Shown in pieces: positions 1,696 through 31,843 of a DNA stretch of 32,000 bases (its first letter is position 1; each line of letters starts with the position of its first letter). The notes beneath the pieces were generated by a model that was not told where the DNA came from, did not search any database, and saw only the letters and a program-made list of their open reading frames with translations. Source of the DNA: an uncultured Candidatus Saccharibacteria bacterium (GTDB lineage: Bacteria > Patescibacteriota > UBA1384 > XYA2-FULL-43-10 > 1-14-0-10-43-13). Both the position numbers and the translations under genes were made by a program. The stretch spans positions 390,001 through 422,000 of the forward strand of contig CAZIYE010000001.1 in NCBI GenBank assembly GCA_964543385.1, read 5' to 3'.

Positions 1696-3243
1696 ATGAG
1701 TACAAACATCATCGAGGAATTGAAAAAAGAAATTTTGGATTTTGATGCCAAAGCGAAAAGTGATACTTTTGGGGAAATAGCCGAGATTGGCGACGGTATT
1801 GCTAAAATTTATGGACTCAAGGAGGCAAAATCAGGAGAACTTCTCAATATCGAAACAAAAGATGGCATAGTCACCGCTATGGCCTTGAATCTTGAGGAAG
1901 CATCTATCGGTGCTATCGTCTTGGGTAATTATAAAAATATAATGGCCGGAGACAAAGTAAAGTGCACAGGTGAAATTGCTAAAGTTGATGTTTCAGAGGA
2001 CATCATCGGACGAGTTGTAAATCCTTTAGGATTTCCTATCGATGACAAGGGTAAAATCAAAGCAGATAAATCAATGCCTATCGAAAAAGTTGCTCCTGGC
2101 GTTATTACCAGACAATCAGTTTCCGTGCCTCTTCAAACTGGCTTAAAGGCTATTGATGCCTTGATCCCTATTGGCCGAGGGCAGCGCGAGCTTATTATTG
2201 GTGATCGTGGGACCGGCAAAACAGCTATCGCGATTGACACTATCATCAATCAAAAAGACCTGCCAAAAGAAAAACGACCTATTTGTATTTATGTTGCTAT
2301 TGGACAGAAGAAATCTAAAGTTGCCCGCATCATGGCAAAATTAGAAGAGGTCGGGGCGATGGAATATACAATCATCGTCTTGGCCGGCGCCTCTGACCCT
2401 GCCTCACTTTCATATATTGCACCGTATACTGGCTGCGCTATTGGCGAATATTTTATGGAAAAAGGCATGGATGTTCTCATCGTTTTTGATGACCTAACCA
2501 AACAAGCTTGGGCCTATAGACAGGTATCCCTCCTTCTTCGCCGACCCCCTGGACGCGAAGCTTATCCTGGCGACGTCTTTTATCTCCATTCTAGATTACT
2601 AGAAAGATCAGCCAGATTAAATAAAGACTTTGGTGGCGGTTCGATGACCGCTCTTCCAATTATCGAAACTCAAGCTGGTGATGTCTCTGCCTATATTCCA
2701 ACAAATGTAATTTCTATCACTGACGGTCAAATCTTCCTAGAATCAGATCTCTTCTACCAGGGCATCAGGCCAGCTCTAAACATCGGCATCTCCGTTTCTC
2801 GTGTTGGTGGCGCTGCCCAGATCAAAGCAATGAAAAAAGTAGCGGGTAAACTAAAGCTTATGATGGCTCAATATCGTGAGCTTGCCGCTTTTGCCCAATT
2901 TGCCTCCGATCTTGATGCCGAAACAAAGAAAACTATCGAACGCGGCAAGAGAATCACAGAGGTTATGAAACAACCACAATACATGCCGATGCCCGTGGAG
3001 GAGCAGGTAGTAATATTATACGCCGTCAACAATGGTTACCTTGACAACTATGAGGTTTCAAAAATTGTTGATATTGAGAAAGAGATCCTAACTAAGGCGA
3101 AGACAGGTATTAAAGATATCCTCACAAATATCCGAGAGACAGGCGAACTTTCCGACAAAGACGAGAGAAAACTTCAGGAGTTTCTTGAGAAAAATACAAA
3201 AACGGTAGAGGCAGAGATAAAGGTTCAAGAAGAAATAAAATAA
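1696..3243 (+). CDS. atpA: F-type ATP synthase F1 subunit alpha
   Basis: 515 aa. Walker A GDRGTGKT. Conserved blocks [24 protein letters not shown] and ITDGQIFLE. Confidence 0.98.
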
Positions 3244-3259
3244 ACATCGAATAAAGAAA

Positions 3260-4171
3260 ATGGCTTCAACACAAGAATTCAGACGCCGAATCAAATCGGT
3301 CAATAATACAAAACAAATTACCAAAGCAATGGAAATGATCGCCTCTATTAAGATGCAAAAGGCAACTCGTTTTGCTGCAATGGCTAGAAGCTACACCCAA
3401 AACGCTTGGAATATGCTTTTAAAGCTTGCAACAATTGTACTGCCAGAGGCACATCCCCTATTGAATCCAAGAGAAGTAAGGAGAACAGCGGTAGTCTTAT
3501 TGACTTCAGATCGTGGACTTTGTGGTTCATATAATTCGGAAGTACTGAAAAAATTTGTTGCATTCGAAAAGGAACAATGCGCCTGCAATCAAAAAAGTTG
3601 CGGTGAATTTGTAGGAAATTGTGATGTAATTACTATCGGTAAAAAGGGCGCGGAATTCACCAAAAGATATAAAACAGGCAAACTAATCGCTGAATTCCCC
3701 GGCTTCGAAAATAATATTCAGGCAGAAGATGTTATGCCTATCTCCAAAATGACAAGCGATGAATACCTAGCCGGCAAATATGACCGAGTAGTAGTTATTT
3801 ACTCTCATTTTGAATCATCACTAAAACAAATACCGGTCGTCAAACAGATTTTACCTATATCAAACGACCATATTGATAAACCAGAAATATGGACACAAAC
3901 CGATGAGGCTGAGACCGAATACAAATTTGAGCCAAGCCCAGATGACGTTCTAGAAGGAATACTTAAGCAATTTCTGAGAGTTCAAATATACGGCGCAATC
4001 CTAGAGGCCAATGCCTCAGAACATTCTGCCCGTATGGTAGCAATGAAAAATGCTACTGACAGCGCTGGTGATCTGATAGATGAGCTCAAACTGGTATACA
4101 ACGCTGTCCGCCAAGGCTCAATCACTCGTGAAATTGCTGAGATATCTGGCGCAGCGGAAGCAATGAAGTAG
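3260..4171 (+). CDS. atpG: F-type ATP synthase F1 subunit gamma
   Basis: 303 aa. N-terminus IKSVNNTKQITKAMEMIASIKMQKA and C-terminus NASEHSARMVAMKNATDSAGDLIDELKLVYNAVRQGSITREIAEI are typical gamma helices. Confidence 0.93.
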   Translation: MASTQEFRRRIKSVNNTKQITKAMEMIASIKMQKATRFAAMARSYTQNAWNMLLKLATIVLPEAHPLLNPREVRRTAVVLLTSDRGLCGSYNSEVLKKFVAFEKEQCACNQKSCGEFVGNCDVITIGKKGAEFTKRYKTGKLIAEFPGFENNIQAEDVMPISKMTSDEYLAGKYDRVVVIYSHFESSLKQIPVVKQILPISNDHIDKPEIWTQTDEAETEYKFEPSPDDVLEGILKQFLRVQIYGAILEANASEHSARMVAMKNATDSAGDLIDELKLVYNAVRQGSITREIAEISGAAEAMK

Positions 4172-4379
4172 CACATTTAAAAAAACCAGGCCGCCACTTA
4201 CTTGATTTCGGCGGCAGCCTGGAGATGGGAAGGCGGGACCATTCCTCGTCTTCATCGGAGACGAACTCGTGTTCGTCGCTACGGCCGAGGGGCCGTGTCT
4301 GTTGCCCTTGCTTCGGGCAATCGGCGGTATCCATGCAGGAGCACGGACACAGATCATCATCGCGGCCACAGTCGGCCAT
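4122..4379 (-). CDS. Hypothetical small acidic Cys-rich protein (85 aa as drawn; 3' end uncertain)
   Basis: ATG at 4379 lies 7 nt after AAGGGGGA. Product is MADCGRDDDLCPCSCMDTADCP... Hand-counted GC1/GC2/GC3 over the first 57 codons is about 67/51/72%, a coding-like pattern. Caveat: no in-frame stop occurs before the terminator at 4179-4222, and the frame only closes 50 nt inside antisense atpG. Confidence 0.4.
   Translation of the reverse strand: MADCGRDDDLCPCSCMDTADCPKQGQQTRPLGRSDEHEFVSDEDEEWSRLPISRLPPKSSKWRPGFFKCATSLLPLRQISQQFHE
4179..4222 (-). terminator. Intrinsic terminator active on the minus strand only
   Basis: Minus strand reads CCAGGCTGCCGCC-(14 nt loop)-GGCGGCCTGG followed by T7. 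On the plus strand the A7 run precedes the stem, so atp transcripts should read through. Confidence 0.6.
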
Positions 4380-4426
4380 AGTGGTGTCCCCCTTTTCGAA
4401 ACGTTGTCCGGAAACCGGATGGGAGA
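4186..4426. other. GC-rich compositional island 1, in the atpG-atpD spacer
   Basis: Abrupt shift from AT-rich backbone to about 60% GC sequence. All-frame ORFs appear here because stop codons are depleted. Confidence 0.8.
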
Positions 4427-4427
4427 T

Positions 4428-4456
4428 ACAATAAAATAAATTAGTTAATATGTCAA
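4428..4456 (-). promoter_or_regulatory. Sigma70-like promoter for the island-1 ORF
   Basis: Minus strand has TTGACA (4456-4451), a 17-nt spacer and TATTGT (4433-4428). It lies in AT-rich DNA directly next to the atpD SD. AT-rich DNA produces such hexamers by chance. Confidence 0.35.
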
Positions 4457-4467
4457 TAAGGAGATAG

Positions 4468-5832
<1,365 letters not shown>

Positions 5833-5836
5833 GAAT

Positions 5837-5882
5837 CCCATCCAAAGTGTATCGGCCGAAACCGATCGACCCTAAGGATGGG
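5837..5882 (-). terminator. Compound hairpin downstream of the island-2 ORF; possible minus-strand terminator
   Basis: Outer stem is CCCATCC/GGATGGG and inner stem is ATCGG/CCGAT. On the minus strand it is followed by ATTCCTATTTTCC. There is no T-tract on the plus strand. Confidence 0.35.
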
Positions 5883-5908
5883 CGGAATTGTATGGCTGTT
5901 CCCCTTCA

Positions 5909-6118
5909 TTACTTCTTCTTTGGCCCTTTTGGCGGAACCGAAGGAAGATGTATCTTCGAGAAGCATCCAAGCCGTGCCATGATGATGATAACCATCACTA
6001 TTACGGCTACTGCCGGAGTAATTGCGCAGGCAAGTCCCATCTTTAGATAGATCAAGATAGCCTCCGCTATCGCGGCCATGCCAAGCGTAATCAGCAAGTC
6101 TCTGAGAATCGGATCCAT
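5909..6118 (-). CDS. Hypothetical 69-aa two-TM membrane protein with a Lys-rich tail (holin-like or type I toxin-like architecture)
   Basis: ATG at 6118 lies 4 nt after GGGGGGTGA. Product is MDPILRDLLITLGMAAIAEAILIYLKMGLACAITPAVAVIVMVIIIMARLGCFSKIHLPSVPPKGPKKK. It has two hydrophobic helices and a basic C-terminus. Confidence 0.5.
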   Translation of the reverse strand: MDPILRDLLITLGMAAIAEAILIYLKMGLACAITPAVAVIVMVIIIMARLGCFSKIHLPSVPPKGPKKK

Positions 6119-6167
6119 GGTTTCACCCCCCATTCGTTTCCAGTAAAGTAGTGTCAACCTTGCTTGT

Positions 6168-6196
6168 TTTATATCATTAATAAATTAGCATTTCAA
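6168..6196 (-). promoter_or_regulatory. Candidate sigma70-like promoter for the island-2 ORF
   Basis: Minus strand has TTGAAA (6196-6191), a 17-nt spacer and TATAAA (6173-6168), abutting the atpC ATG. A second TTGACA at 6157-6152 has no acceptable -10. Confidence 0.3.
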
Positions 6197-6616
6197 ATGA
6201 AAACAAATTTCAACTTAAAAATCATCGCCCCTGATGGCGTCAAATATGAGGAAGAGGCCACCGAAATTAGCCTTCCGACTCCAGATGGCTATATTACCAT
6301 CCTGCCAAATCATATGCCTCTAATAGCACTATTAAAGCCAGGCGAGATTATCATCAAGAACGGTTCGAAAATCCATGAGCTAGCAACCGAGGGCGGTATT
6401 GTAGAAATCTCGAATAACCTAGTTAAAATCTTGGCTGATACAGCTGAAGAGGTCAATAATCTTAACGAACTAAGAATTATTGAGGCCAAAAAAGCCGCCG
6501 AAGAGAGATTAAAAAATGCCAAGGATGATGTTGAGTTTGCCGATGCAGCCGCTCATTTAGAAAAACAATTAGCAAAGCTAAGTATCCTTAACAAACGCAG
6601 AAAAAAATACCGCTAA
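6197..6616 (+). CDS. atpC: F-type ATP synthase F1 subunit epsilon
   Basis: Starts MKTNFNLKIIAPDG, then TILPNHMPLIALLKPGEI, with a C-terminal helical hairpin. The ORF-track start at 6164 is a TTG extension. Confidence 0.9.
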   Translation: MKTNFNLKIIAPDGVKYEEEATEISLPTPDGYITILPNHMPLIALLKPGEIIIKNGSKIHELATEGGIVEISNNLVKILADTAEEVNNLNELRIIEAKKAAEERLKNAKDDVEFADAAAHLEKQLAKLSILNKRRKKYR

Positions 6617-27405: not shown

Positions 27406-27419
27406 ATAAATGGTATAAA
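27391..27419 (+). promoter_or_regulatory. Candidate sigma70-like promoter for the island-3 ORF
   Basis: TTGATC (27391-27396), a 17-nt spacer and TATAAA (27414-27419), in AT-rich DNA at the 5' end of mnmA. Confidence 0.35.
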
Positions 27420-27434
27420 TATGCTTATCATTTT

Positions 27435-27459
27435 CGATATCCTAACGGATATCGTTTTT
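27435..27459 (+). promoter_or_regulatory. Perfect 8-bp inverted repeat plus T5 in the predicted leader (attenuator hairpin or operator)
   Basis: CGATATCC-TAAC-GGATATCG followed by TTTTT, lying between the candidate -10 and the SD GGAGGA (27475-27480). Confidence 0.5.
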
Positions 27460-27465
27460 GGTAAA

Positions 27466-27693
27466 ACCCCTATTGGAGGATGTTCGATGATTAACCCCTG
27501 CCTGCGCGCCCAATTGCGGCGCGACGTCGCCCGTCGCTGGAAGGCGACCACGGAAGCACTCCGTAACTCTGAATGCCAGAACTGCGTTCTCGCAGACAGC
27601 GGATCGTGCGCTCCGGCCAACTGTCCGGGCCATCAGGCCCAATCGCGGCACTAGCCGCACTGCGTCCCGCCACTCCCCTCAAAGGAGTGGCGG
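27466..27693. other. GC-rich compositional island 3, in the mnmA-folD spacer
   Basis: Hand count of the ORF gives about 65% GC, against about 37% in a folD sample line. Confidence 0.8.
27487..27654 (+). CDS. Hypothetical 55-aa basic Cys-rich protein
   Basis: GGAGGA lies 6 nt before the ATG. Product is MINPCLRAQLRRDVARRWKATTEALRNSECQNCVLADSGSCAPANCPGHQAQSRH. Hand-counted GC3 is about 73%. TAG stop lies 12 nt before a strong terminator. Confidence 0.5.
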   Translation: MINPCLRAQLRRDVARRWKATTEALRNSECQNCVLADSGSCAPANCPGHQAQSRH

Positions 27694-27701
27694 TTCTTTT
27701 T
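27667..27701 (+). terminator. Intrinsic terminator active on the plus strand only
   Basis: CCGCCACTCC-CCTCAAA-GGAGTGGCGG followed by TTCTTTTT. The T-tract overlaps the folD stop codon on the opposite strand. Confidence 0.8.
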
Positions 27702-30216: not shown

Positions 30217-30426
30217 CTACTCATTAATCTTTTTAGCTATTTTTCTTAAATCCTGCAAACAGGCTTTGCAGCCAGAACCAGAGATTAAATTTTCAAATTC
30301 CTCTTTTGAAACGAGATAAGCAACCGACTTTGAATACCTATTAACTTCATAAATTTCCCCTGCTTCAACTTCCTTAATAATTTTCGAAAGGTGATTTTGT
30401 AATTCGTTTGTAGTAATTTTTTTCAT
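30217..30426 (-). CDS. Phd/YefM-like antitoxin-fold small protein, with no toxin partner
   Basis: ITTNELQNHLSKIIKEVEAGEIYEVNRYSKSVAYLVSKEEFENL matches the Phd/YefM N-terminal pattern from memory. iscS begins 24 nt downstream. Confidence 0.5.
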   Translation of the reverse strand: MKKITTNELQNHLSKIIKEVEAGEIYEVNRYSKSVAYLVSKEEFENLISGSGCKACLQDLRKIAKKINE

Positions 30427-30442
30427 ATATGTTTATGGTTAT

Positions 30443-30490
30443 GTAATATAACAAGTAATATAACAAGTAATATAACAAGTAATATAACAT
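30443..30490. repeat. Tandem 12-bp direct repeat GTAATATAACAA x4 (last copy ends in T)
   Basis: Read directly. It occupies the leader of the Phd-like gene, and the last copy contains the candidate -10. Confidence 0.95.
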
Positions 30491-30509
30491 TTAAGGAATT
30501 GCCTGTCAA
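30481..30509 (-). promoter_or_regulatory. Candidate sigma70-like promoter of the Phd-like/isc/folD operon
   Basis: Minus strand has TTGACA (30509-30504), a 17-nt spacer and TATATT (30486-30481). Confidence 0.4.
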
Positions 30510-30520
30510 TTAGTAAACAT

Positions 30521-30574
30521 AAAACGAAAACGAGCCCTGGTACATCATGTACACAGGGCCCGCTCGGATTTTTG
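30521..30574. terminator. Stem-loop terminator at the left border of island 4, with T-tracts on both strands
   Basis: Imperfect stem CGAGCCCTGGTACAT / ATGTACACAGGGCCCGCTCG. It is flanked by AAAACGAAAA on the left (GTTTTCGTTTT on the minus strand) and GATTTTT on the right. Confidence 0.65.
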
Positions 30575-31843
30575 ACCTGAGCGCGAACGCCCGGGTCATC
30601 TCCCACTTCCTTTGTTCAGCTCCACCAGCGGTCCGATGACCACCTTCTGGAGCATGATCCTACGATTCTCGGGGTTCCGCAGCCTCCAGCTGTCTCCTCC
30701 CAGGAATCGGCGCTGCTCAGCAGCAGACAGCCCCTTCCAGCGTGGATCCTTCGCCTGAGCGGCGATCTCAGCATCGCTGTTTGGGACGCCGCACTCGAGT
30801 AGCACCTTGTTCTCGATCGTGTTATAACCACCGAGAACATCGAAGGTCTTTGCTAAAGTGCAGTTGACTGGCTTGCCGAACCGTTTCCGGCCATAGCCCT
30901 GATCAAGCAGAACATTCTCGATCAGTCCGGCCAGTTGTCCAGTGTTACCTCGTCGGTGACACTCACGCAGCCCTGACCAACCATTGCTACCCAACGAGTC
31001 CACATGGAGCTCGACGAATGCACTAGTGGTACAGTTCTGGTGATCAGACTGGGCTTGGGCAGCAGCTTTCGCTCGGTCGACTGTGTCAGAGGAGTTCTGC
31101 ATGGGGTTTCCCCCATATAAGACAGCCTCTTTTGGCAACGGCAGAGGATCTTTTGGCCCAGTCACCTGGTCCATTGATTCAGCCTCGGCCGCATATACCA
31201 CAGTCGCACCGAGAGCTTCAGCCATCAGGCCAAGCTCACGCGCCATCCGATAGGTATAGGCGGCTTCCCAGTAGGCTTCTCCGTCGAATACCCAAGAGCA
31301 TCCGACGTCGAGACCATAACTGGTTACAGCATCACGGCCACCATGACCGGGGCTAACGACCAGCAACTGACCCAATAGGGCGTTCTGGCCATATTGCGCT
31401 ACGATTGCCCTACGCTCTGCTTCGGAGAAGCTGAGTTTGGGGCCTCGGGGCAGAAGTTTGCCAAGGCCTTGCGGCTCCTGGGGCTCCTGCACAGTCGTGC
31501 CGGGCTTTACAGCCGGCTTGTGCTGGTTCCACGGGTGCCACAAGAGCACGCCGAGAACCAACAACAGGAAAAGACTTGCCATGATAACGCCGAAGCGGTT
31601 CTTAGCATAGTTTTCTGCATAGGAACTACCGAACCCTGCAAAGAACGCAATGACTGCCGCCATCAGGGCTTCGAGGACCATCCACAGGCCCTGCAAAAAT
31701 GCGAGGGCTTTGGGGTGGCGGCGCCCGAAGGTCGCCCAACGCTGTTGAATCCGCATGATTTTTCTCCTTTTCAGAGCTGCCACGTGCGGTTGGACAGCTC
31801 AAGTGTTCTTCTCGCCGGATGTGTAGAATTTCCAGCGTAGACT
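30531..31843. other. GC-rich compositional island 4
   Basis: About 1.3 kb of clearly GC-rich sequence with sharp AT-rich borders on both sides. Confidence 0.85.
30596..31756 (-). CDS. Membrane-anchored N-acetylmuramoyl-L-alanine amidase-like protein (Amidase_3/MurNAc-LAA-like)
   Basis: I prefer the ATG at 31756, which follows AAAGGAGA. Two N-terminal hydrophobic helices. Motifs VVSPGHGGRD, GEAYWE, ELHVDS and VLLECGVPNSD follow the Zn-amidase pattern GHGG...E...H...E. TGA stop lies 29 nt before the terminator. Confidence 0.55.
   Translation of the reverse strand: MRIQQRWATFGRRHPKALAFLQGLWMVLEALMAAVIAFFAGFGSSYAENYAKNRFGVIMASLFLLLVLGVLLWHPWNQHKPAVKPGTTVQEPQEPQGLGKLLPRGPKLSFSEAERRAIVAQYGQNALLGQLLVVSPGHGGRDAVTSYGLDVGCSWVFDGEAYWEAAYTYRMARELGLMAEALGATVVYAAEAESMDQVTGPKDPLPLPKEAVLYGGNPMQNSSDTVDRAKAAAQAQSDHQNCTTSAFVELHVDSLGSNGWSGLRECHRRGNTGQLAGLIENVLLDQGYGRKRFGKPVNCTLAKTFDVLGGYNTIENKVLLECGVPNSDAEIAAQAKDPRWKGLSAAEQRRFLGGDSWRLRNPENRRIMLQKVVIGPLVELNKGSGR

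Follow-up and report, generated by a model that had tools for sequence, protein, structure and literature searches.

An antisense cysteine-rich micro-gene, probably conserved between atpG and atpD of candidate phyla radiation bacteria, has lost its stop codon in one strain

The spacer between atpG and atpD, which encode the gamma and beta subunits of the F-type ATP synthase, contains a small GC-rich island in an uncultured bacterium of the candidate phyla radiation (CPR; Patescibacteria). We consider it probable that the minus strand of this island carries a conserved micro-gene that occupies this slot in each of at least four related CPR lineages, where purifying selection acts on it, and that has lost its stop codon in the present strain only. 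The spacer lies in a stretch of 32,000 nucleotides (nt) (contig CAZIYE010000001.1, positions 390,001 to 422,000), hereafter the window. The island would constitute a separate transcription unit on the minus strand, filling the spacer from atpG to atpD with a sigma-70-type promoter, a 41-nt leader, a strong ribosome-binding site, a gene of 45 or 46 codons, and an intrinsic terminator acting in one direction. The micro-protein family is new and unannotated: "hypothetical protein" is its sole name in any source, and the window strain has no gene call for it.

The window derives from an AT-rich genome (~38% GC), whose nearest species representative by atpG is a Candidatus Berkelbacteria metagenome-assembled genome (71% identity). 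The ATP-synthase genes are located on the plus strand, with atpA at 1696-3243 and atpC ending at 6616; atpG, atpD, and the features of the spacer are listed in Table 1. The spacer measures 296 bp, and its core (~4186-4421) reaches ~61% GC. Independent assemblies of the sequencing runs SRR12261223, SRR12261225, and SRR12261226 contain the identical 296 bp. Since the same spacer was obtained from three separate runs, the island is no chimera or other assembly artefact.

Table 1. Coordinates of the features in and around the atpG-atpD spacer (window positions)
Feature	Position	Strand	Remarks
atpG (F1 gamma subunit)	3260..4171	+	PF00231; upstream flank of spacer
atpD (F1 beta subunit)	4468..5832	+	downstream flank of spacer
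-35 hexamer TTGACA	4451..4456	-	directly upstream of the opposite-strand atpD Shine-Dalgarno; invariant in 4/4 lineages
-10 hexamer TATTGT, 17-nt spacer	4428..4433	-	overlaps -10 of the plus-strand promoter-like site
Promoter-like site TTGTCC-17-TACAAT	4404..4432	+	9/12; faces the micro-gene promoter
5'-UTR (untranslated region) hairpin CCGG-TTT-CCGG (CCGGTTTCCGG)	4408..4418	-	leader of the micro-gene
Shine-Dalgarno AAGGGGGA	4387..4394	-	7 nt, then ATG 4379-4377
Conserved coding region, 46 codons, MADCGRDDDLCPCSCMDTADCPKQGQQTRPLGRSDEHEFVSDEDEE	4242..4379	-	homologues P0001, P0002, P0003
Hairpin TTGCCC-N7-GGGCAA	4302..4320	-	within the coding region; inner 4 pairs kept in 4/4 sequences
Hairpin GACGAAC-ACGA-GTTCGTC	4260..4277	-	within the variable part of the coding region
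TGG at ancestral stop-codon position	4239..4241	-	aligned codon TAG (L084), TAG (L085), TAA (L088)
Read-through extension, 38 codons + TGA 4124-4122	4122..4238	-	crosses the terminator, 50 nt into antisense atpG
C-rich 3'-UTR element CCTTCCC	4227..4233	-	RNAalifold helix, columns 76-80 with 241-245
Intrinsic terminator, minus strand only	4179..4222	-	12-bp stem 4222-4186, 13-nt loop, U7 4185-4179

An exhaustive HMMER (phmmer) search of 1.84 billion cluster representatives with the window protein returned two significant matches, P0001 (E = 1e-12, 78% identity, 45 residues) and P0002 (E = 3e-8, 56% identity, 45 residues). Looking up the cluster of P0002 yielded a third homologue, P0003. The homologous genes always lie antisense between atpG and atpD of related CPR contigs (L084, L085-L087, L088-L089, and one JGI/NCBI contig). 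The micro-gene comparisons below are based on four distinct spacers and proteins, those of the window, L084, L085, and L088 (spacer alignment A3, protein alignment A4). Word-index protein searches gave no match for the minus-strand frame, the plus-strand frame of the same island, or the protein of a third GC-rich island in the window; these null results were misleading, because the exhaustive HMMER search later found homologues. Back-translated pattern scans of JGI metagenome contigs and IMG/VR with either the single peptide or the family alignment retrieved nothing, and the micro-gene was not found by tblastn or nhmmer in the 80 genome loci nearest by atpG.

The signals of the transcription unit are conserved along with the gene. 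All minus-strand elements listed in the original prediction (promoter, leader, Shine-Dalgarno sequence, ATG, open reading frame (ORF), hairpins, and terminator) were present where it had placed them. The promoter TTGACA-17-TATTGT (4456-4428) has TTGACA/TATAAT-like hexamers 17 nt apart and is therefore predicted to be active as a sigma-70-type promoter. It represents a 10/12 match, and 16 kb hold only four such sites, this one included; the match rises to 11/12 in L084 and 12/12 in L085. The hexamers are kept in the relatives, the counterpart of the -10 element being TATTAT in L084 and TATAAT in L085 and L088. Counterparts of the plus-strand promoter-like site (10/12 in L084, 9/12 in L085) overlap the micro-gene promoter at its -10 region; conceivably, this site drives atpD, face to face with the micro-gene promoter. 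In the leader, the hairpin reads CCGA-TAT-TCGG in L084, its pairs being kept as C-G, C-G, G-C, and A-U, although the MAFFT columns score it as one-sided changes only. The positions of ATG and Shine-Dalgarno sequence are kept in all four lineages; the latter is GAAGGGGGA in L084 and GAGGAGG in L085 and L088, with unchanged spacing.

The window ORF begins MADCGRDDDLCPCSCMDTADC, with 5 Cys within residues 1-21, and its first in-frame stop is the TGA at 4124-4122 inside antisense atpG, which confirms that the frame does not close before the terminator. GC contents at the three codon positions are 63/52/68% within 4379-4200 and 70/46/67% across the 46 conserved codons, close to the hand count of ~67/51/72% on which the frame had been favoured; host genes show ~55/37/35%. 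However, the open frame by itself is uninformative, since only one of the six frames is closed in this GC-rich stretch of the window.

The coding evidence comes from the substitution pattern among the relatives. Between L085 and L088, differences fall on the three codon positions in a ratio of 2/1/9; nine are synonymous and two non-synonymous, which corresponds to a ratio of non-synonymous to synonymous substitution rates (dN/dS) of 0.04 (binomial P = 2e-5). Homologues evolving without codon periodicity had been named as an observation that would speak against a gene, and the opposite was seen. For the window compared to L085 or L088, dN/dS is 0.14. Residues that are invariant include M1, A2, C4, G5, R6, D8, D9, C11, P12, C13, S14, D17, T18, A19, D20, C21, and P22. 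The four invariant cysteines (Cys4, Cys11, Cys13, and Cys21) form the pattern C-x6-C-x-C-x7-C and survive synonymous TGT/TGC changes. This N-terminal part is followed by a variable Pro/Gly/Gln-rich linker and then by the conserved acidic end SD(E)DEE. Overall, the conserved frame, start, promoter, ribosome-binding site, and terminator together with the codon-periodic substitutions in the relatives support the gene that had been proposed.

These data bear directly on whether the island is instead a purely non-coding, structured antisense RNA with an open frame that is incidental to its GC-rich sequence. GC-rich islands in AT-rich genomes are often RNA genes, and the five open frames in the window, the strong predicted structure, and the missing stop codon of the window allele would fit such an RNA. 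Nevertheless, we regard it as very unlikely: the substitutions are codon-periodic with dN/dS of 0.04-0.14, ATG and ribosome-binding site are conserved, the stop-codon position is kept in three lineages, and the invariant cysteines are retained via synonymous changes. A known RNA family was also sought for the island; Rfam 15 gave nothing at gathering thresholds and a best match of E = 2 in a search up to E 10, and ARAGORN gave nothing either. The structured antisense RNA that had been put forward as one of three explanations is thus contradicted as the sole one, while a role of the RNA in addition to coding stays possible.

The comparison with the relatives also bears on the question of the strand. 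An ORF of 56 codons on the atp strand (4269-4439), with a GTG start preceded by GGAGA 7 nt upstream, might be the real gene, co-transcribed with the operon, and the minus-strand frame merely its mirror image. This plus-strand frame is open, has a plausible ribosome-binding site, and its hydrophobic translation resembles a protein. However, no homologue of it was found, L085 and L088 carry stops in all three atp-strand frames through the island core, and the substitutions cluster at third positions of the minus-strand frame, i.e., at first positions of the plus-strand frame. We therefore rejected the plus-strand ORF, which is hardly credible as the gene.

Several observations weigh against a conserved micro-gene under selection. 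Only four distinct sequences are available; they form two close pairs, and all come from metagenome assemblies. Compared to L084, the window copy has a dN/dS of 0.43, which is not significantly below 1 (P = 0.11), so that the window copy itself may be unconstrained; across all micro-gene comparisons dN/dS ranges from 0.04 to 0.43. The micro-protein does not match any family in Pfam, NCBIfam, PHROGs, or PADLOC, or any PDB sequence, and its AlphaFold model is of low confidence (pLDDT, the predicted local distance difference test score, of 55). The exact 85- and 131-residue window frames have no match in the protein collection, and the spacer is without any listed gene in the Logan contigs. Expression of the micro-gene is predicted from sequence. 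Finally, a protein-only model leaves unexplained the high GC content at third codon positions (GC3) and the compensatory hairpin changes described below, which suggest selection at the RNA level.

We found the reason for the missing stop in the same alignment. The codon after ...DEE is a stop in three of the four lineages and TGG in the window, and TGG is present in every assembly of the window strain. As judged from the alignment, the loss is a derived, strain-specific, single A-to-G transition (TAG to TGG). Because the relatives carry TAG or TAA at the aligned codon, the missing stop is a derived mutation and not a design feature. The actual cause was thus not among the three explanations given originally. 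Two of these, leaky termination and a non-stop mRNA, are possible consequences of the stop loss, as predicted from the arrangement of frame and terminator. An ancient frameshift that once placed the TAA in the terminator loop (4200-4198) in frame was also considered and is unnecessary, as the alignment shows a plain change from TAG to TGG.

In the relatives, the stop lies 20-24 nt ahead of the terminator stem, and a terminating ribosome would leave the terminator hairpin free to form. In the window, ribosomes are predicted to enter the terminator after the change to TGG. The counterpart of the read-through extension (WSRLPISRLPPKSSKWRPGFF...) in the relatives is 3' UTR and terminator. The next in-frame stop in the window follows 55 nt past the U-tract, which predicts a non-stop mRNA if the terminator functions: ribosomes on transcripts that end at the U-tract would have to be rescued. 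Transcripts that read through, on the other hand, would encode an 85-residue protein with a new basic, hydrophobic tail, and the antisense RNA would be extended into atpG. The computed isoelectric point (pI) of the 85-residue form is 5.1, compared to 4.05 for the conserved protein. Taken together, the window sequence looks like a recently damaged allele, for which a lower or altered protein output is the most likely net effect.

How far this damage goes depends on the rest of the gene. Within the first 22 codons, the window and L084 differ by a proportion of 0.06 at non-synonymous (pN) and 0.35 at synonymous sites (pS). Polarised against L085 and L088, the window shows a single conservative change, E3D, within the first 22 residues; the stop loss must therefore either have occurred recently or be tolerated. 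The window copy may be under relaxed constraint. It is also conceivable, although in our view rather unlikely, that the gene is dead in the window strain, inactivated by the stop loss, and that the island is an inert relic in the course of eroding. In line with this, the stop loss is restricted to the window lineage, dN/dS of the window versus L084 does not differ significantly from 1, a terminator within the reading frame predicts non-stop transcripts, and other close relatives contain unrelated genes or nothing in the gap, so that the gene is dispensable. In contrast, the window copy has kept its promoter, ribosome-binding site, ATG, acidic tail, and all invariant cysteines, E3D is the only change in the N-terminal part, and frameshifts and internal stops are absent; decay, if any, would be very recent.

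The claimed strong hairpin followed by seven T residues was borne out and is conserved in four lineages. It fits an intrinsic (Rho-independent) terminator, with activity predicted from sequence. Its fold reaches -23.2 kcal/mol on the minus strand (z = -4.6) and -17.5 kcal/mol on the plus strand, where it is weaker because two G-U pairs become C-A mismatches; a T-run after the stem is absent from the plus strand. Since the stronger fold and the U-tract occur on the minus strand only, the terminator serves the micro-gene. It had been missed by a simple terminator scan owing to its 13-nt loop. The window, L084, and L088 share one terminator sequence, from which L085 differs by one compensatory pair (G-C to A-U) and two changes from G-U to A-U. 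A leader-peptide transcription attenuator was excluded, as the minus strand has no downstream gene, only antisense atpG, and the stop of the relatives precedes the stem.

Both perfect hairpins that had been noted inside the island were found (4277-4260 and 4320-4302). The former shows two compensatory columns, A-U to G-C in L084 and A-U to U-A in L085 and L088, and its stem is kept while the encoded peptide varies (EHEF, GPVS, DRQI). RNAalifold predicts a chain of short hairpins, and its model weakly suggests that the C-rich 3'-UTR element pairs with the G-run of the Shine-Dalgarno sequence. In stability, the fold greatly exceeds shuffled controls, with z = -4.75 on the minus strand and z = -3.6 on the plus strand. 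Both-sided pair changes number 4 compared to 1.8 expected, and the covariation score was reached in 3 of 500 shuffles of the four sequences. GC3 is 56-67% in the micro-gene of all lineages (gene GC 57-61%), compared to 35-49% in atpD and the host genes. The two cassette types differ by a synonymous divergence (dS) above 1, and a GC3 that nevertheless stays high is in line with either selective maintenance of a stable RNA or recurrent import from other sources. A constraint at the RNA level besides coding is thus possible.

Such a constraint would be expected if the transcript of ~245 nt had a dual function, encoding the micro-protein and acting as a structured cis-antisense RNA that tunes the atp genes; we propose this tentatively, as an addition to the micro-gene. 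Over its whole length, the transcript is complementary to the junction of atpG and atpD in the atp mRNA, and its fold stability, the excess of both-sided pair changes, the hairpin retained as the peptide changes, and the high GC3 are all in favour, as are the overlap of promoter-like sites on both strands in three lineages and an N-terminal domain that has not decayed since the stop loss. On the other hand, only four sequences contribute, and in tool trials related sequences beat shuffles without any structure. Moreover, the in-gene hairpins are near-palindromic and so do not indicate which strand matters, and both antisense regulation and promoter competition are purely conjectural.

Comparison of the spacer with its flanks revealed incongruent histories. 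L084, L086, and L088 form a tight group in atpG and atpD (94-98% amino-acid identity), to which the window shows 62-66% identity in atpG with saturated dS. In contrast, the spacers of the window and L084 are 80-95% identical (dS 0.31), while their flanks are 60-80% identical with saturated dS in atpG and atpD. L084 and L086 show the reverse pattern, identity dropping to 50-70% in the spacer. The switch points are the atpG stop codon and the atpD start codon; the adjoining coding sequence follows the species pattern. Because the spacer has a history different from that of its flanks, this indicates that the whole spacer cassette was exchanged horizontally between lineages, presumably via recombination in the conserved ends of atpG and atpD. 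Horizontal exchange would also account for the foreign-looking, GC-rich appearance of the island in the window. Other occupants of the same gap are known: L003 (4050-4436) and L005 (1173-1532) contain a 23S_rRNA_IVP (four-helix-bundle) gene on the atp strand, and L004, L006, and L007 have short spacers. Small accessory genes have repeatedly landed at the atpG-atpD junction. No phage, plasmid, or defence-system match for the micro-gene was obtained from PHROGs, PADLOC, BLAST against phage and plasmid records, or viral contigs.

The micro-protein has 12-14 acidic residues, a pI of ~4, and 4-5 Cys, and lacks a hydrophobic segment. A metal ion is probably bound by the Cys4 cluster. We favour a micro-protein that combines a metal-binding Cys4 cluster with an acidic tail of the docking type and that would be made from an independent transcript. 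Its constant location may reflect cassette movement rather than action on the ATP synthase. The gamma subunit of the window has a Cys-rich insertion of its own (EQCACNQKSCGEFVGNCD, atpG residues ~104-121), which is common to L003, is absent from the other micro-gene lineages, and may represent a redox or metal site in gamma. A link between this insertion and the micro-protein was dismissed, as the three other micro-gene lineages are without any Cys in gamma.

Further small genes are located in the ATP-synthase loci of these lineages. The mildly GC-elevated atpD-atpC spacer of the window (5833-6196) contains an antisense cassette of like design, comprising TTGAAA-17-TATAAA, which abuts the atpC start, GGGGGTGA 4 nt ahead of ATG, and a hydrophobic minus-strand ORF of 69 codons (6157-5951; MDPILRDLLITLGMAAIAEAILIYLK...), followed by a stem CCCATCC...GGATGGG and a T-rich tail. 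The exact sequence of this frame is not in the protein collection, and a family match is absent. At the same position, L084 has no spacer, and L086 (2452-2799) has a gene of 115 residues on the atp strand that occurs in relatives and has no assigned family. The atpA-atpG gap, which comprises only 16 nt in the window, harbours an antisense 59-residue double zinc-ribbon gene (Pfam Zn_ribbon_3, DZR) in L085 (2580-2880) and L086 (5354-5650). Here, TTGACA-17-TATAGT lies one base from the atpG start codon and is followed by AAAGGAGA, a TAG stop, a C-rich 3' UTR (CCCCATCCTCCC), and a terminator with T6.

With these cassettes in mind, one might picture the micro-gene cassette as a horizontally exchangeable control module of the ATP synthase, in which exclusive, overlapping promoters toggle between the beta and epsilon subunits and the micro-protein, the Cys4 protein senses redox state or metal and inhibits F1 or serves as its assembly factor, and the antisense RNA acts on the atpG-atpD junction. 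Such a module would be consistent with the similar cassettes, i.e., the atpA-atpG zinc-ribbon gene of L085 and the hydrophobic 69-codon frame that the window has between atpD and atpC; as a whole, however, we consider it improbable.

The window contains two additional GC-rich islands. The second (27406-27699, ~65% GC) lies antisense between folD and mnmA and has a plus-strand ORF (27487-27654) with GGAGGA 6 nt before ATG, 55 Cys-rich codons (MINPCLRAQ...CQNC...SCAPANCPGH), a normal stop, and, at 27667-27693, a 10-bp terminator. An identical copy is present in another assembly (L083). The frame has no homologue, no family match, and no similarity to the atpG-atpD island. The third (30596-31783, minus strand, 1.3 kb, ~57% GC) encodes a protein of 386/395 residues whose N-terminus contains a membrane segment and whose match to Amidase_3 stays below threshold (E = 2e-5); it lacks a phage match, and a 671-kb NCBI contig is the recorded source of its 386-residue form. 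Logan assemblies break just ahead of this island at a 12-nt tandem repeat (GTAATATAACAA x3, 30443-30490). Between nifS and the third island, the minus strand encodes a Phd/YefM-type antitoxin of 69 residues (30217-30426, Pfam E = 8e-10) without an obvious adjacent toxin partner. A repeat family or mobile element was rejected for the islands, as 4180-4420, 27470-27700, 30500-31800, and the atpD-atpC spacer have no mutual similarity (blastn, tblastx); terminal repeats were not seen by eye.

Our findings add an unannotated micro-protein family, which is new although its parts are ordinary, and illustrate how, in an otherwise AT-rich CPR genome, a small GC-rich island may turn out to be a real gene exchanged between species. 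The oddity of the missing stop comes down to a point mutation of an ordinary kind, although its predicted consequences are interesting. As a natural stop-loss allele whose frame runs through its own terminator, it provides a test case for ribosome rescue and for how translation and termination interact in organisms not yet grown alone. Furthermore, antisense micro-gene cassettes of like design recur as interruptions of the ATP-synthase operon in this clade and, if functional, bear on the regulation of a core energy complex in minimal genomes. With respect to annotation practice, the family was missed by word-index searches and gene callers and was recovered only by an exhaustive profile search. 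A search of the literature on these sequencing runs, on antisense small proteins in atp operons, and on Cys-rich small proteins of Patescibacteria returned nothing relevant.

Among known systems, the micro-protein resembles small Cys4 metal-binding proteins such as zinc ribbons or knuckles, rubredoxin-like proteins, and SmtA/BmtA, with four invariant Cys within 18 residues and a size of ~5 kDa, and its CxC/CPC motif recalls metallothionein and copper-binding motifs. AlphaFold, however, predicts no fold for it. A zinc-ribbon or rubredoxin-like domain was rejected, as the two CxxC (or CPxCG) knuckles are absent and Pfam and NCBIfam profiles remained unmatched up to E 10, as did PDB sequences. 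A bacterial metallothionein of the SmtA/BmtA type was discarded as well, given the lack of a Pfam match and 4-5 Cys compared to ~9 or more Cys/His ligands. The micro-protein, with its ~45 residues and a genetic tie to ATP-synthase genes in every lineage that carries it, also recalls the small inhibitors of F-type ATP synthases, i.e., cyanobacterial AtpTheta, the alphaproteobacterial zeta subunit, and mitochondrial IF1. These inhibitors are basic or helical and not Cys-rich; sequence similarity to them and a Pfam match of any kind are absent, and membership in such a family was therefore rejected.

The locus as a whole invites three further comparisons. As a small gene overlapping an opposite-strand transcript, it is reminiscent of type I toxin-antitoxin loci, but the peptide is strongly acidic and hydrophilic, has no hydrophobic segment, and is not accompanied by an evident separate antitoxin RNA, which excludes a type I toxin. 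A window transcript ending at the U-tract would resemble substrates of trans-translation by transfer-messenger RNA (tmRNA) and SmpB in having no in-frame stop, yet in the window this state goes back to a recent point mutation in a single strain rather than to design; no tmRNA gene is located within the window. Finally, with its own promoter and terminator opposite an operon junction, a small frame, and conserved structure, the micro-gene unit is similar to cis-antisense and dual-function small RNAs such as SgrS/SgrT and RNAIII/hld. It differs from these in the lack of Rfam homology and in a coding signal that is much stronger than the structural one.

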